Virus record (IMG/VR): IMGVR_UViG_3300035182_001152
Strand: one strand, 5' to 3'
Source of the DNA: a virus
Lineage: Duplodnaviria; Caudoviricetes
DNA: 64,000 nucleotides
Part shown: in pieces, positions 22,872 to 53,900 of the stretch
Position numbering within the stretch: position 1 is the stretch's first letter
How the letters are laid out: each line of letters starts with the position of its first letter
The notes under the pieces: model-generated
What the model saw: the letters and a program-made list of their open reading frames with translations, nothing else
Told to the model about the DNA's origin: nothing
Databases searched by the model: none
Position numbers and translations under genes: made by a program

Positions 22872-22874
22872 TTG

Positions 22875-23270
22875 GGTGTGTATTTGGTATGCTACGGGAT
22901 TGCACCGTAACCATCGACTTAACGACTTTCGCTAGTGGTTCATCCGCTTCAGTTACGTGCATTCGCGGAGCTCTATTCGAGTTCTGTAAGAGTTGACGCA
23001 CAGAGCACGTACTAACTGGCCAACTCTAAACATTGTGCGCACGGGGACTATCGAAATCGCCTTTCACCGCTTTGCAAGCGGCACCATCACCCTTCTGGCT
23101 CGCACGCATTAAAAGCTTGCTGGTATACCAGCAACTTGGTTAGCCCGCATCTCGTTTGAGTCGTATCACTTCTTAGCTGTCGAAGGCTTAACGGCGCTGC
23201 TATTTGGGTTACCAAGCACGTGACACGAGATCGCACCATCACGTACGCACACTAAAGTGCGTTAGCTTTT
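22875..23270 (-). ncRNA. Putative structured ncRNA downstream of tRNA-Ala
   Basis: ORF-free ~400 nt with many helices and a 3' T-arm-like hairpin TACGG-tgcaatc-CCGTA. Confidence 0.5.
23036..23107 (-). tRNA. Non-canonical tRNA-Cys(GCA)-like cloverleaf
   Basis: 7-bp acceptor GCGTGCG/CGTGCGC, D arm CCA..TGG, anticodon loop TTGCAAA, T loop TTCGATA; T-stem has a C-C mismatch, A73. Confidence 0.5.
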
Positions 23271-23272
23271 TG

Positions 23273-23345
23273 TGGAGGATAACGGGATCGAACCGTTGAC
23301 CTCATGCTTGCAAAGCATGTGCTCTCCCAGCTGAGCTAATCCCCC
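23273..23345 (-). tRNA. tRNA-Ala(UGC)
   Basis: GGGGGATTAGCTCAGCTGGGAGAGC..TT TGC AA..GGTTCGATCCC; G3-U70; CCA not encoded. Confidence 0.95.
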
Positions 23346-23351
23346 AGGGGA

Positions 23352-23592
23352 CGGTGGAGGATGGGGCCGCCCATCCTCTATGCTTCGTCGGCTCCGAAGC
23401 ACACCGTGAGTCTCTCATTCTAATACAACGCTTACTGTGGAAGGTTGCCCTTACGCCCGAATGAGTTAGGCCCAAGTCATTATCAGTTCCGTACGTCAGA
23501 CTTGGAATTGAGTACGAGAACATCGGCTTTGGTGTCATCTACCGACGGGGTGGTCAGCTTGCGCTGCTTAACACGAGACTTTCATCTCCACC
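23352..23592 (-). ncRNA. Putative structured ncRNA leading tRNA-Ala
   Basis: Terminal helix GGTGGAG/CTCCACC, at least six internal helices, directly after a sigma70 promoter. Confidence 0.55.
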
Positions 23593-23601
23593 AGTTCGTT
23601 A

Positions 23602-23630
23602 ACTATAACGGTTACCTATTTATCCGTCAA
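23602..23630 (-). promoter_or_regulatory. Sigma70-type promoter TTGACG-17-TATAGT
   Basis: Near-consensus, overlaps 3' end of macro-domain gene. Confidence 0.75.
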
Positions 23631-32528: not shown

Positions 32529-32801
32529 ACTAGTCTCCGGAAGTTGTGATAATCAACCTTCCGAGAAATCGGTTATCCAGTAAACAACCAATAAAAGGGG
32601 AACGCCTGTGGCTCGTGGCCACAGGCGTTCCATGTTGGGGAGGTTACCTGACCTTGATCAGGCTGAAGCAGCCACCCACGCTGCCGGCGGTAGACACAAG
32701 GGCCCACGGCCAAAACGCAGACTCCGTGACGCTCCAGTCGGAGATCCAGCCGCCGAGCAGAAACACGGCAATGGAAACCAAAGTTGAGCAAATTATGAAT
32801 T

Positions 32802-33224
32802 TCATGCGGACACCAGTTGCGTCAGATTGACGCCCTCGCGATGAGCGAACGAGAGGTTCTCGTACGAAATCGTCACCAGGCCTGCGCGCCGGAGTTCTTC
32901 CAGGGGCAGGAGGATGGCGGTCAGGTATTCCATCGCCTCGTTCACGTAGTCGTTGGTCAGATCCTCAACGTCCTCACCCTCGGCGGCGAGCAGCATCATC
33001 GTCAGGACGATCATGTCGCGGCCCGCTTGATCCTCAGCAGCAGCTTCAGTGACGTGATGTTGGACTTGCGCAGCGACCTTGTTGAGATCGTGCACATCGA
33101 ACAGCGACAGGCCAGACAGCCAATCGCCGAGCGTGAGGTAGTTGCCGACGTTCTCACGCAGTCGGAGCTGCAGACGTGCGACAGCCTTGGCTGCCACGTC
33201 CGACAGATTGTTTTCTTGTTCCAT
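32802..33224 (-). CDS. Hypothetical helical protein
   Basis: AAGG RBS before ATG 33224. Confidence 0.65.
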   Translation of the reverse strand: MEQENNLSDVAAKAVARLQLRLRENVGNYLTLGDWLSGLSLFDVHDLNKVAAQVQHHVTEAAAEDQAGRDMIVLTMMLLAAEGEDVEDLTNDYVNEAMEYLTAILLPLEELRRAGLVTISYENLSFAHREGVNLTQLVSA

Positions 33225-36215: not shown

Positions 36216-37415
36216 TTATGACAGATGGATCCGAGCGAAATTTCGCTTACCTACTTGCATCACGTAGGTGCCTGGTTCGATCACGCGCCTTTTGTCTTGC
36301 TCGACCACACCGTCGATGCGGATCCCACGCTGTTCGATCTTTCGCCCGGCTTCAGACATCGAGGGGCACAGGCCAGATTCCTTTAGCAAGGATGTGACAG
36401 GACGAGCGCCGCCTGATGCATAGAAGTCGCGCACTTCTGCCGGAATTCCACCGTTAGAACGGTTGACAAAGTCGTCATGCGCACGATCTGCCAGTTCTGC
36501 GGAATGGAACCGCGTAACCAGTTCTTTTGCAAAGGTGACCTTGATGTCTCGGCAGTTGACATCAGAACGACGAACAAGGGCTTGCGCGACCAGCTGTCCG
36601 TTACCGCTGAGCAGCGGAATCCAATCCCACATCAGCTTGTCGCTGATTGCCATCACCTGCGAGAACATCTGTTCGGGTGGCGTAGCAACACCGATGTAGT
36701 TGTTCTTCGACTTCGACATCTTGTGCGTGCCGTCCGTCCCGACCAGCAGCGGCATCGTCAGAATGCACTGCGGAGATAGCCCGTAGGCTTCTTGCAGCTG
36801 ACGACCAACCATCAGGTTGAACGTCTGATCTGTGCCACCGATCTCCAAGTCCGCATTGAGTGCGACGGAATCGTAGCCTTGTAGCAGGGGGTACAGGAAC
36901 TCGTGGATGCTAATTGGAGTTTGAGCCTGCAGCCGCTTGGCGAAATCGTCCCGCTCAAGCATTCGAGCGACAGTGTGCTTGGCAGCGAGTTCGACCAGCC
37001 CACGTGCACCAAGCGCGTTGCACCACTCGCTGTTCCAGCGGACCTCCGTCTTCGATTGGTCGAGCACCTTCCACGCTTGATCGCAGTACGTCTCCGCGTT
37101 CAGTTGAATCTGATGGTGAGACAGTACCGGTCGGGTGGAGTTGCGGCCAGACGGATCGCCAATCGCGGCTGTGAAGTCACCGATTAGCAGAATTACCGTA
37201 TGCCCAAGATCCTGCAGTTGCCGTAGCTTCTGCAGGACGACGACGTGCCCGAAGTGAATGTCGGGAGCGGTTGGGTCGAACCCGAGCTTGATCCGAAGCG
37301 GCACGCCGGTCTGTTGGGACTTCAGCAGCTTCTTTTCCCACTCGTCGCGCGGCGTCAGAGAGACGCTACCCGCGATAGTGGTCATGAACGGTTGTTCAAC
37401 AGCCGGGATGATCAC
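36216..37415 (-). CDS. tyrS: Tyrosyl-tRNA synthetase
   Basis: KLGFDPTAPDIHFGH (HIGH), YPLLQGYD, GGTDQ, KMSKS, C-terminal S4 domain; GTG start by GTGA overlap. Confidence 0.93.
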   Translation of the reverse strand: MIIPAVEQPFMTTIAGSVSLTPRDEWEKKLLKSQQTGVPLRIKLGFDPTAPDIHFGHVVVLQKLRQLQDLGHTVILLIGDFTAAIGDPSGRNSTRPVLSHHQIQLNAETYCDQAWKVLDQSKTEVRWNSEWCNALGARGLVELAAKHTVARMLERDDFAKRLQAQTPISIHEFLYPLLQGYDSVALNADLEIGGTDQTFNLMVGRQLQEAYGLSPQCILTMPLLVGTDGTHKMSKSKNNYIGVATPPEQMFSQVMAISDKLMWDWIPLLSGNGQLVAQALVRRSDVNCRDIKVTFAKELVTRFHSAELADRAHDDFVNRSNGGIPAEVRDFYASGGARPVTSLLKESGLCPSMSEAGRKIEQRGIRIDGVVEQDKRRVIEPGTYVMQVGKRNFARIHLS

Positions 37416-37585
37416 ACGCCGTCCCTGAACAGCTTGACGAGTCCGACGATCACGGTTATGCCAAACAGCATGTAGAAGCCGAACACCACTCCTGCGCCAA
37501 TCAGTGCGCCCGTCAGGAACGCGCTGCAGCTCAGACCACCAATAAAGGCGCCGATTGCAGCGCCTGCACACATCCATTTCAACAT
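37412..37585 (-). CDS. Small membrane protein
   Basis: Gly/Ala-rich hydrophobic, AGGAG RBS. Confidence 0.6.
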   Translation of the reverse strand: MLKWMCAGAAIGAFIGGLSCSAFLTGALIGAGVVFGFYMLFGITVIVGLVKLFRDGV

Positions 37586-37873
37586 TGTTTTTCTCCTGTG
37601 AAAATCCGTATACGTGAGCAGGTTGGTGAATCGATGTGTTACACTTACACCAGCAGTCAGCATGTCCCTTATCCGGAAAGGTCCACGTTTATCTAACGCC
37701 CTGCTCGTTACGCAGGATAACCGAAGCTCAAATCCAACTCTGCTCGCGTATACAGACGAGGATGGGGCTGTGATTCTGGCCGCCCCACCTTTTTGACGTT
37801 TCCAGGCAAACAGTGCAGCAATACGTAGCACCACACGTATTGCTGCTGGATTATGAGACCAGCAGCAAATCGC

Positions 37874-38113
37874 TTACTTGCGACGGGCCGGGAAGCCGTT
37901 GTCGTGACCGCCGGAGCGGCTGTTGTACGAGTGCGTGCGTTCGTTCGCACGTTCGCCGAACTTCGGATGATCCGGGCCCTTCGACACGGTGAACTTGTAG
38001 TGCTCCGGCTTGTCGTCCTTTGCGGGGACCTTCGCACCGCGAGCGACCTTCGCCGCCTCCTTGGTTTCGAAGTATTGGACCGGGGTGGTGTTCAGTTGAT
38101 AGATGCGCTTCAT
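37874..38113 (-). CDS. Small basic protein
   Basis: GGAG RBS; GC3-biased codons. Confidence 0.6.
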   Translation of the reverse strand: MKRIYQLNTTPVQYFETKEAAKVARGAKVPAKDDKPEHYKFTVSKGPDHPKFGERANERTHSYNSRSGGHDNGFPARRK

Positions 38114-38129
38114 GGCCTTTGCTCCACGC

Positions 38130-38700
38130 TGTTGATGAAAATTGTTCGGACATTGCCCATTAGGCAATCTGCGAACAACTTAGAAGCAACGGTGAGGATT
38201 CGGCTCACCGCCACCTATTTTCAAAACCCCTACCACCGATCTGGCGCACCTTTGTGGCGTGCTGGGCGTTTCCCGACGACCGTACCGTCGTTGATAAATC
38301 TCTGCGTCATTGCTAGGGCGTACGTGCTTTAGCAATCAGAGGATGTCCGAGTATGTGTTCTCCTAAGGCGTAAACTACTCGCAGTGTCAGTAATATGTGT
38401 GGGTGGAGTCCCAGGCCCTCTCACGCTACGGAATCGACCGTATGCCCTGACATATTACCAAGACAGCAAGGCGGGATATGCACCCGCTCCCATACTCTCA
38501 GAGTCTCCACCAGTCCCAGATACGACATCTTCTCTGGGGTTAGACCAACGACGTAGTGGCCACTACAATCTGTCAGTCGGCGACCGATCACCTTCAAGGG
38601 CCCGATCGGCTAGGACCTATCTTCCAAAGAGCAACCCCAACCACGAGGATCTGCTTCACTCAACCTCGCAGTTTTACGTGCAACGTTTCGTTCAACCGAT
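38130..38700 (-). ncRNA. Putative large (~570 nt) ornate ncRNA
   Basis: No credible minus ORF; more than 12 helices incl. long-range and pseudoknot-like pairings; promoter TTGCGT-17-TAGAAT at 38735-38707. Confidence 0.55.
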
Positions 38701-38726
38701 GAATCTATTCTATGGAGAAACCCTAA

Positions 38727-38960
38727 TTAACGCAACCGACTAACGGGTGTAAACGTAAACCAGCGGAGATGGCCGATCACCACGTTGTTCTGCTTGATCG
38801 TCAGGCGAGCCCCAACCGCCCATGCAACAGCAAGAGCAGACAGTAGCAACCCGATCAGGATCACAGCCAGCACGACCATCGCTGGGACGAGTACGCAAGC
38901 TAGTGCGATCTTTGCAACTGCACCAAAGAATTGACCGAGCACGATCAGTAGTTGTTTCAT
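38727..38960 (-). CDS. Small membrane protein
   Basis: Hydrophobic; ATGA overlap. Confidence 0.6.
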   Translation of the reverse strand: MKQLLIVLGQFFGAVAKIALACVLVPAMVVLAVILIGLLLSALAVAWAVGARLTIKQNNVVIGHLRWFTFTPVSRLR

Positions 38961-39139
38961 TTGCACACCTTTTGCACCACGTATGCTGCCGCAAATCCGA
39001 CAGCAAGATACGGAGCGAGGTGAATGATCAGGGCGCCGATTGTGGCGAGAATTCCAACGCCAAATACGAACGCAGGGAGAAGGCACACCACTGCGAGAGT
39101 GGTCAGCACAGCAACAAGGGCAATCTTCAGAGGAGTCAT
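38957..39139 (-). CDS. Small membrane protein
   Basis: Hydrophobic 60 aa. Confidence 0.55.
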   Translation of the reverse strand: MTPLKIALVAVLTTLAVVCLLPAFVFGVGILATIGALIIHLAPYLAVGFAAAYVVQKVCK

Positions 39140-39190
39140 TTTACGTCACCAGTTACACAAAGTACTGATATCGTATAGGTCACCCTGTTA

Positions 39191-39457
39191 TTACGCAACA
39201 GCTGCCGGTACAGTTGGCACAGCGGAGGACGACCTGATCATCTTCCACTCTTCGAACTTCTTGCCTTCCGGCTCGACAGTGAACGACAGCACAACATTCT
39301 TGTTGTCAAGTGGTCGCCACTGCTTGATCCCTGTCAGTTTGTGGCACTTGCCATCAATCTCAACCAGAATGTCTAGATCGGGATGACAGATCCCAAATTG
39401 GTGTTGCAGTGTGCCGATTGTTGCGCCGTCCGGCCAGTCGACTAATTGAATTGTCAT
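39191..39457 (-). CDS. Hypothetical protein
   Basis: GGAGG RBS. Confidence 0.6.
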   Translation of the reverse strand: MTIQLVDWPDGATIGTLQHQFGICHPDLDILVEIDGKCHKLTGIKQWRPLDNKNVVLSFTVEPEGKKFEEWKMIRSSSAVPTVPAAVA

Positions 39458-53432: not shown

Positions 53433-53750
53433 TCATTGCTTCTTCTCCCGCGTGACGTAGAACTGCAGGTACGTCGACAGACGCGGGTGCGGACGGCGGA
53501 ACATCCCGAACGCGTACCGATCACCGAACTGCTTGACCAGCTCGTCATGGAGCTTATGTTGCTGCTCCAGCGGCGCCTTGTTGATGTCGGCGGCGAGCGG
53601 CAGCGTCAGCTGGATGTACGGGTTGCACGAGCGGTCGGACACATTGACGTTGCGCTTCAGAGCAACGTCGCCGACGCGGGTTTTCGTCTTGAACCCCGCC
53701 GCCTTCATCGCAGCACGGACGCGGTCCGCATCGGTCAATTTCTTGGGCAT
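53433..53750 (-). CDS. Hypothetical early protein
   Basis: GAGGAG RBS; TTGACT-17-TATCCT promoter. Confidence 0.7.
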   Translation of the reverse strand: MPKKLTDADRVRAAMKAAGFKTKTRVGDVALKRNVNVSDRSCNPYIQLTLPLAADINKAPLEQQHKLHDELVKQFGDRYAFGMFRRPHPRLSTYLQFYVTREKKQ

Positions 53751-53900
53751 CAGTTGACTCCTCGAAGTGGTGATGCAGGATACTGCCTTCACCCTAATTA
53801 GTCAACAGTGCAAACGGAGAGGGCGGCCACCACTATTACACCAGATGTTTACTAGTGAACAGTGGAGGCCGCCCTCAGAGCGGCACCCAGATCGCCCCGA

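Follow-up and report, generated by a model that had tools for sequence, protein, structure and literature searches.

A gene-free gap of 613 nucleotides (nt) interrupts a run of small minus-strand genes in the virus record IMGVR_UViG_3300035182_001152 (Duplodnaviria; Caudoviricetes), of which one stretch of 64,000 nt, referred to here as the window, was analyzed. The reading that we favor, at a probability of roughly 45%, is that 0.56 kb of non-coding DNA in this gap was inserted into a promoter linker, or left there by recombination, and is now transcribed as a long leader with attenuating hairpins at its end; the insertion history, which is drawn from one genome, the transcription, and the attenuation are all inferred. 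An earlier sequence-only reading had instead described the region as a promoter-driven, highly structured transcript and a candidate for a new large non-coding RNA (ncRNA). The features on which the argument turns are the following.

38114-38726, minus-strand genes on both sides: the gene-free gap under study, 613 nt
38707-38735, minus strand: early sigma-70-type promoter, with -35 element TTGCGT at 38735-38730, a 17-nt spacer, and -10 element TAGAAT at 38712-38707
38698-38706, minus strand: conserved initial transcribed motif AGATTCATC, which holds the left copy of TTCATC (38703-38698)
38223-38697, minus strand: body of the gap, ~475 nt, non-coding and G-rich (30% G, 23% C), not significantly folded and without detected relatives
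38184-38216, minus strand: hairpin T1, terminator-like, with stem CGGUGAG/CUCACCG and loop CCGAAUC, extendable to 13 pairs with G-U pairs and followed by UUGCUUCU
38139-38181, minus strand: hairpin T2, terminator-like, with a 10-pair outer and a 7-pair inner stem and small internal loops (AAGUUGUUCG..GAUUGCC / GGCAAUG..CGAACAAUUU), running into UUUUCAUC
38134-38139, minus strand: right copy of TTCATC, which together with the left copy brackets 564 nt (38697-38134)
38114-38133, minus strand: translation initiation region of the 79-amino-acid (aa) gene, AACAGCGUGGAGCAAAGGCC before the AUG, with Shine-Dalgarno (SD) sequence GGAG at 38125-38122
37874-38113, minus strand: early gene of 79 aa, with a positive codon score, a period-3 signal, and 17 homologues

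The promoter that had been proposed, TTGCGT-17-TAGAAT, is indeed present and overlaps the TAA stop codon (38729-38727) of the upstream 77-aa gene. A class pattern derived from the phage's own early promoters, TTG-N20-TA-N3-T-AG-N3-CAT, has five matches in the 64 kb against 0.01 expected, all of them on the minus strand and this promoter (P38735) included. P38735 was aligned with P35723, P45027, P46496, and P48775, and in the case of P35723 the similarity extends ~20 nt beyond the -10 element. Moreover, AGATTCATC is identical at eight of nine positions to AGACTCATC, which follows P35723, and is related to the AGCCACATC of three other early promoters. As judged from these sequence patterns, P38735 belongs to the phage's own early-promoter class. 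A stricter consensus promoter scan did not list it, its -35 element agreeing at only three of six positions.

What sets P38735 apart is the distance to the next gene. At all 16 of the other minus-strand promoter linkers, an SD sequence and start codon follow 22-35 nt after the -10 element, compared to 593 nt at P38735. The hexamer TTCATC is common to AGATTCATC, directly after the -10 element, and to TTTTCATCAACAGCGTGGAGC, before the ribosome site of the 79-aa gene, and when the 564 nt are removed and position 38698 is joined to 38133, the product is TAGAAT-AGATTCATCAACAGCGTGGAGCAAAGGCC-ATG, a canonical 29-nt linker like those at P45027, P46496, and P48775. In other phage contigs, homologues of the 79-aa gene lie 0-140 nt behind the preceding gene or their own promoter, which makes the long spacer a peculiarity of this phage. 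Taken together, the restored linker and the homologous cassettes imply that the 564 nt are best read as an insertion or a cassette-recombination scar.

Several lines of sequence evidence indicate that the 79-aa gene encodes a real, conserved small phage protein. Its G+C content at third codon positions is 0.81, its codon score is positive, and its period-3 signal is strong; a phmmer search returned 17 homologues, the best of them 58% identical (alignment A1). The family consensus is MKRLFEVNG..FF..K..AK.ARG...VSKGPDHWRYG...RTHSHN.RSGGHGNGFP.K.K, for which no Pfam or PHROG family was found. The initiation region is also shared: ..AAC..CGTGGAG(C) stands before the start codon at five of six compared loci (L065, L067, L068, L069, and this phage), with only L070 carrying a diverged CTGTGGAG. 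The homologous cassettes often show a leader hairpin followed by (A)TCATCAAC..CGTGGAG, and comparison of the upstream regions places T2 where that leader hairpin lies in the other phages. Two contigs of the family, L067 (1365-1912) and L068 (325-749), share a promoter design, TTGAC-N17-TATAGTTATAACACTG, with long hairpins in the leaders behind it; in L067, a stretch of ~0.5 kb after the promoter and leader is without a called gene.

Linkers of this kind have precedent as sites of gain and loss. In the hyperplastic regions of T4-type phages, insertions and deletions are documented at promoter-early stem-loop (PeSL) cassettes, which are composite terminator/promoter motifs (Arbiol et al. 2010, PMC2839356; Comeau et al. 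2014, PMC4122927). The present locus resembles them in that the preceding small gene ends inside a host-type early promoter within a hyperplastic early region, in that a stem-loop stands beside the ribosome site of the next gene, T2 being placed like the leader hairpins of L065, L068, and L069, and in that repeated linker motifs (AG..CATC, CATCAAC) could act as recombination points for insertion and deletion. It differs in that the two linker halves are 564 nt apart with no gene between them, leaving T2 520 nt from the promoter, and no hairpin folded around P38735 itself was found.

The two terminal hairpins are the only part of the region whose folding is significant. T1 has a minimum free energy (MFE) of -17.1 kcal/mol (z -4.15, 0/200 shuffles, pairing probability 1.0) and T2 one of -20.3 kcal/mol (z -5.75, 0/200 shuffles, pairing probability 0.99), and the last 95 nt that contain both (38128-38222) reach z -5.18, with none of 200 shuffles as good. 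A Rho-dependent termination site was considered as well and seems less likely, since the RNA is G-rich (C/G 0.77) and C-rich only locally, in a single patch near 38405-38330.

Based on these data, the following course of events is proposed. In this T4-like jumbo phage, two small early genes would originally have been joined by a linker of stop codon, early promoter, and ribosome site. Host RNA polymerase would now start from the promoter at 38735-38707, with the start site near 38700, transcribe ~480 nt of untranslated and essentially unstructured RNA, and then meet T1 and T2 directly before the 79-aa ribosome site. Transcripts that stop there would yield a 0.5-kb by-product RNA with no demonstrated role, and those that read through would carry the 79-aa gene, a 288-nt spacer, a 57-aa gene, and tyrS. 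By scans and by reading of the sequence, no promoter-like site was recognized in the 288-nt spacer or from T2 to the ATG, so P38735 probably serves the 79-aa gene, the 57-aa gene, and tyrS. In this way T1 and T2 may serve as an attenuator, with the operon expressed later or at a lower level. The delayed-early genes of T4 depend on read-through of terminators, and the locus would resemble the immediate-early/delayed-early organization of that phage in having one early promoter, terminator-like hairpins, and then early genes without a recognizable promoter of their own. It differs in that the untranslated distance before the terminators, ~480 nt, is far above the usual, and termination and read-through are predictions here.

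A number of observations weigh against this account. Neither T1 nor T2 was listed by a terminator scan, their U-tracts being short and interrupted (UUGCUUCU, UUUUCAUC); in the case of T1, we think that the G-U extension of the stem uses up the tail. No relative without the insert, or with a different arrangement, was found, and all contigs with the 77-aa gene share the gap. The TTCATC repeat is only 6 nt long and was noticed post hoc, and CATC/CATCAAC is itself a recurrent linker motif, so that chance or microhomology is inseparable from a target-site duplication. The similarity to P35723 does not stop at the left TTCATC but continues for ~12 nt, so that the left junction is blurred, and terminal inverted repeats are unconvincing, with ~5 of 9 positions matching by eye. 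Features of a miniature inverted-repeat transposable element are limited to the 6-nt flanking direct repeat and these end repeats, with no second copy in the window. Finally, phages usually purge useless DNA, and the keeping of 0.5 kb hints at some function.

Down to the ATG at 38113, each minus-strand frame contains TAA, TAG, and TGA, so that none of them could be opened by recoding, and an alternative genetic code was excluded on the same grounds. The open reading frames (ORFs) of the gap (119 aa on the plus strand; 58 and 51 aa on the minus strand) have flat G+C contents over the three codon positions (GC1/2/3) and negative codon scores, and the flanking small genes show the phage pattern. 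A frame-independent period-3 test was significant nowhere in the gap, compared to most of the length of each of four flanking genes, and six-frame read-throughs of the gap (X at stops) had no match in Pfam or PHROG. The 613-nt gap is truly non-coding, as the sequence-only reading had held.

One case which that reading had named as able to overturn it, translation of the plus-strand 119-aa ORF (38384-38743), is most improbable, as is translation of any other small ORF in the gap. The ORF does offer 119 open codons from a GTG start, and a weak plus-strand promoter-like site occurs at 38541-38569, though inside the ORF itself. Yet its GC1/2/3 of 0.58/0.49/0.48, together with its negative codon score and the lack of period-3 signal and of Pfam or PHROG matches, gives it the appearance of non-coding DNA; it runs opposite to all neighboring genes, and whereas the real genes have a GGAG 5-10 nt ahead of the start, none of the small ORFs in the gap does.

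A decayed protein-coding cassette, that is, a former gene behind the promoter that is now functionless transcribed DNA, deserves more consideration, although we regard it as unlikely. The linker design itself predicts a gene right behind the promoter, and a hydrophobic ORF of 21 codons begins ~45 nt after the start site, with a GTG at 38659 that stands 4 nt behind an SD-like GAGG. In phase with the upstream gene, only 6 stops occur in 204 codons, but the stops per frame (7, 13, and 14) are not significantly different (chi-square p ~0.3). Similarly, the codon score at ~38606-38470 exceeds the 99th percentile of off-frame windows, but ~100 windows were tested, so one at that level is expected. 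The absence of a period-3 signal extends to the 58-aa ORF, and beyond the empty six-frame search, neither the frame-0 read-through nor the 58-aa ORF has a protein homologue.

Folded as a whole, the region gave z -1.89 on the minus strand, with 6/100 shuffles equally good, and z -2.17 on the plus strand, and the minus-strand value is reached because the 3' 95 nt supply the signal: without the 3' hairpins, the 483-nt body falls to z -0.23, with 40/100 shuffles as good. Comparison with natural phage DNA led to the same result. Against 67 phage stretches of the same length, the gap scored z -0.9 after correction for GC content, with 16% of the controls as stable, and its halves scored z -0.5 and -0.3 against 135 phage controls. 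Eight 120-nt windows within the gap averaged z -0.48, compared to -0.69 for 146 flanking, mostly coding windows. These results imply that the body is, as far as thermodynamic models can tell, essentially unstructured, with no folding beyond chance, and the description of the region as highly structured does not hold.

The individual helices proposed for the region were examined in the partition function of a 576-nt transcript. Every quoted arm is present in the sequence, but three of the ten helices have pairing probabilities of 0.00-0.04: GGGGUU/AACCCC and GGUGGAG/CUCCACC are at 0.00, and the local CCGAUC/GAUCGG is at 0.04 versus 0.76 for a competing long-range partner. The only favored helices are GCGGG/CCCGC (0.93), UUGCUA/UAGCAA (0.99), GUAAUAUG/CAUAUUAC (0.86), a palindrome (0.65), and the two 3' hairpins (0.99-1.0). 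The suggestion of a pseudoknot or switch loses its footing in that one of the two overlapping helices, UGUCAG/CUGACA, has a pairing probability of 0.06. By our own arithmetic, chance alone should produce ~40 complementary 6-mer pairs in 600 nt, and a list of ten 5-8-bp helices is therefore no evidence of structure.

Kinship with known RNAs was sought by cmscan against Rfam 15, covering the whole window at gathering thresholds and the segments 37500-39300 and 38100-38760 at E<=10. The whole-window scan returned two tRNAs only, and the narrow scans returned nothing relevant, with ROOL, GOLLD, T-box, group I introns, tmRNA, and Polynucleobacter-1 all covered. ROOL (RF03087) and GOLLD (RF01998) are large ornate RNAs (Kretsch et al. 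2025, PMC12286853), which the gap resembles in size (~0.5-0.8 kb), in its location in a phage genome, and in having no coding capacity; lacking a covariance-model match, significant folding of the body, and conservation, it is not a member, and the likeness that the sequence-only reading had drawn to this class was not supported by the Infernal search that it had itself proposed. The gap shares with the Polynucleobacter-1 motif (RF01718) a length of a few hundred nt, an absence of genes, and a setting in an aquatic T4-like jumbo phage, but it has no model match and no nuclease gene upstream, and on the available evidence it is not a member of this family either. ARAGORN at default settings found no tRNA or tmRNA in the gap. 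A permuted tmRNA called only at the 80% threshold, with an atypical tag (GGEPNPHRCF) and overrunning the end of the supplied sequence, was taken as noise.

Searches for relatives at the DNA level were likewise negative. No relative was found by blastn or megablast in 50,697 GenBank phage records, and BLAST against 49 related IMG/VR records (5, then 44, picked via the radical-SAM gene/cassette of the window at 39-71% identity) gave only 14-25-nt chance matches. Among 401 Burkholderiales genomes there was no relative, the best match (E 1.5e-5 per genome) falling inside the 79-aa coding sequence and the others being short and GC-rich. Exact 18- and 21-mer scans of IMG/VR gave two matches, both in unrelated coding DNA with dissimilar flanks. 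With the 79-aa protein and tyrosyl-tRNA synthetase (TyrRS) as anchors in IMG/VR, no relatives were found, and the phrog_1540-like and MazG-like neighbors are not syntenic in related contigs. The copies of the gap that were found are identical ones only, from the same phage population. Within the window, neither blastn nor nhmmer detected a paralogue. Membership in a paralogous RNA family with other non-coding gaps was rejected, as the shared motifs ACTGGTGGAGA, TACGGT..CCGTAGC, and TGCACGTAA were matched or beaten by 21-103 of 200 shuffles. Three repeated 8-mers occur in 620 nt versus ~3 expected by our own arithmetic, and 7-8-mer repeats are thus at chance level. A replication origin also seems unlikely: the GC content is 0.53, and the gap has no AT-rich stretch, no turn of the cumulative GC skew, and no iteron-like repeat family.

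These results bear directly on whether the region is a stand-alone orphan ncRNA gene of ~510-565 nt, running from P38735 to T1/T2, that acts in trans or as a scaffold through a fold missed by nearest-neighbor models. A complete promoter-to-terminator unit with no coding signal is what such a gene would look like, 0.6 kb of non-coding DNA is unusual in a densely coded region with promoters 22-35 nt from starts, and both tRNA genes of the window are preceded by promoters that share the design TTGAC-N16/17-TATAGT. However, the body folds no better than many shuffles and is no outlier among phage DNA, homologues and paralogues are lacking in every collection searched, and the homologous 79-aa cassettes of other phages have no such stretch. 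Nothing positive favors a functional RNA, and we consider the gene improbable and the candidacy for a new large ncRNA unsupported. Less probable still is that the 0.5-kb unit is a functional orphan phage RNA, such as an early decoy, sponge, or scaffold, whose tertiary, multimeric, or protein-bound form would be invisible to secondary-structure stability.

A further alternative is raised by the genes downstream. A sensing cis-regulatory leader, T-box-like and responding to tRNA or of another riboswitch type, might control read-through of T1/T2 into the tyrS operon, and a promoter, a long leader, terminator hairpins, and a ribosome site with tyrS downstream are all in place. In addition, UGGUGGAG (38512-38505) is complementary to the tRNA 3' end ...CUCCACCA, and GGUGGUA occurs ~20 nt upstream of T1. 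On the other hand, neither a T-box (RF00230) nor a riboswitch matched in the gap at E<=10, no antiterminator pairing competing with T1/T2 was found by eye, the domain closed by GGUGGAG/CUCCACC folds on its own with z -0.07, and the leader is absent from the homologous 79-aa cassettes. The gene under direct control would not be tyrS, which is preceded at its operon by a separate and far better folded spacer. T-boxes are also not known from Betaproteobacteria, the likely host group. Overall, control by a sensing leader is very unlikely.

The insertion into a promoter linker thus remains the reading that we prefer, and the gap lies in the following neighborhood.

38727-38960, minus strand: gene for a predicted 77-aa membrane protein, based on the ORF list, gene calls on public contigs, and a period-3 signal
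37586-37873, minus strand: second non-coding gap, 288 nt, with strong folding
37412-37585, minus strand: gene for a 57-aa membrane protein
36216-37415, minus strand: tyrS

Read along the minus strand, the order is an 88-aa gene, a 60-aa gene, the 77-aa gene, the 613-nt gap, the 79-aa gene, the 288-nt gap, the 57-aa gene, and tyrS. From ~20 to 62 kb, the window consists of small minus-strand genes, many of them with a host-type promoter just behind the preceding gene. The phage is present in a few mat and sediment runs, and no RNA run is listed among those with the stretch. No differences in the gap are listed among contigs from four DNA runs, the fourth of which (low depth; the phage or a close relative) has no contig over the gap. 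The TyrRS is full-length and 63% identical to Comamonadaceae enzymes. Among its best 120 matches, apart from the phage's own copy, none exceeds 64% identity, and the named ones are bacterial; with bacterial sequences as the closest, TyrRS is no anchor for phage synteny. From this sequence kinship, tyrS was probably captured from a betaproteobacterial host, and the relationship suggests Betaproteobacteria as the likely host group.

Of the two gaps, the 288-nt spacer appears from the folding calculations to be the truly structured element. Its sense strand has an MFE of -110.3 kcal/mol (z -5.02, 0/200 shuffles), with the plus strand weaker at z -3.73, and against 135 phage stretches of the same length it scores z -2.5, with 1/135 as extreme. 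Two mutually exclusive hairpins are predicted after the stop codon of the 79-aa gene, and a helix of ~21 bp closes a branched domain of ~110 nt, after which come UUUU and the ribosome binding site of the 57-aa gene, with tyrS downstream. The spacer has no Rfam match, and neither a search of IMG/VR with one 21-mer nor BLAST against Burkholderiales genomes and the records of related phages turned up a relative. Possible roles are those of an RNase III site, of a terminator, or of a leader regulating the tyrS operon.

Other parts of the window also hold non-coding or strongly folded DNA. Around the tRNA-Ala gene (23272-23345), ~745 nt are without genes (22872-23616, minus strand). A strong promoter, TTGACG-17-TATAGT, lies at 23630 and is followed by a 250-nt leader in which a 5' GGUGGAG is able to pair with CUCCACC just before the tRNA. 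The 400-nt trailer contains a tRNA-Cys-like sequence at ~23035-23105, which ARAGORN called at the 80% threshold only. Two segments, 53600-53887 and 32600-32887 (minus strand), fold far better than their GC content predicts, with residuals of -29.7 and -20.2 kcal/mol within the 288-nt control set, and promoter hairpins or further RNA elements may lie there.

Two cautions follow for the reading of such regions: ten hand-picked helices of 5-8 bp in 600 nt are at the level of chance, and a promoter with a gene-free gap behind it does not by itself make a structured RNA. As it stands, the gap carries little weight beyond being a further example of plasticity in the early hyperplastic regions of T4-type phages, in which promoter/stem-loop linkers are the seams where DNA comes and goes. 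The by-products of the analysis are perhaps worth more, namely, the conserved 79-aa family, several members of which share their initiation region, and the strongly folded spacer of the tyrS operon. A 0.5-kb transcript shown to be both stable and abundant would merit study as an orphan phage RNA.

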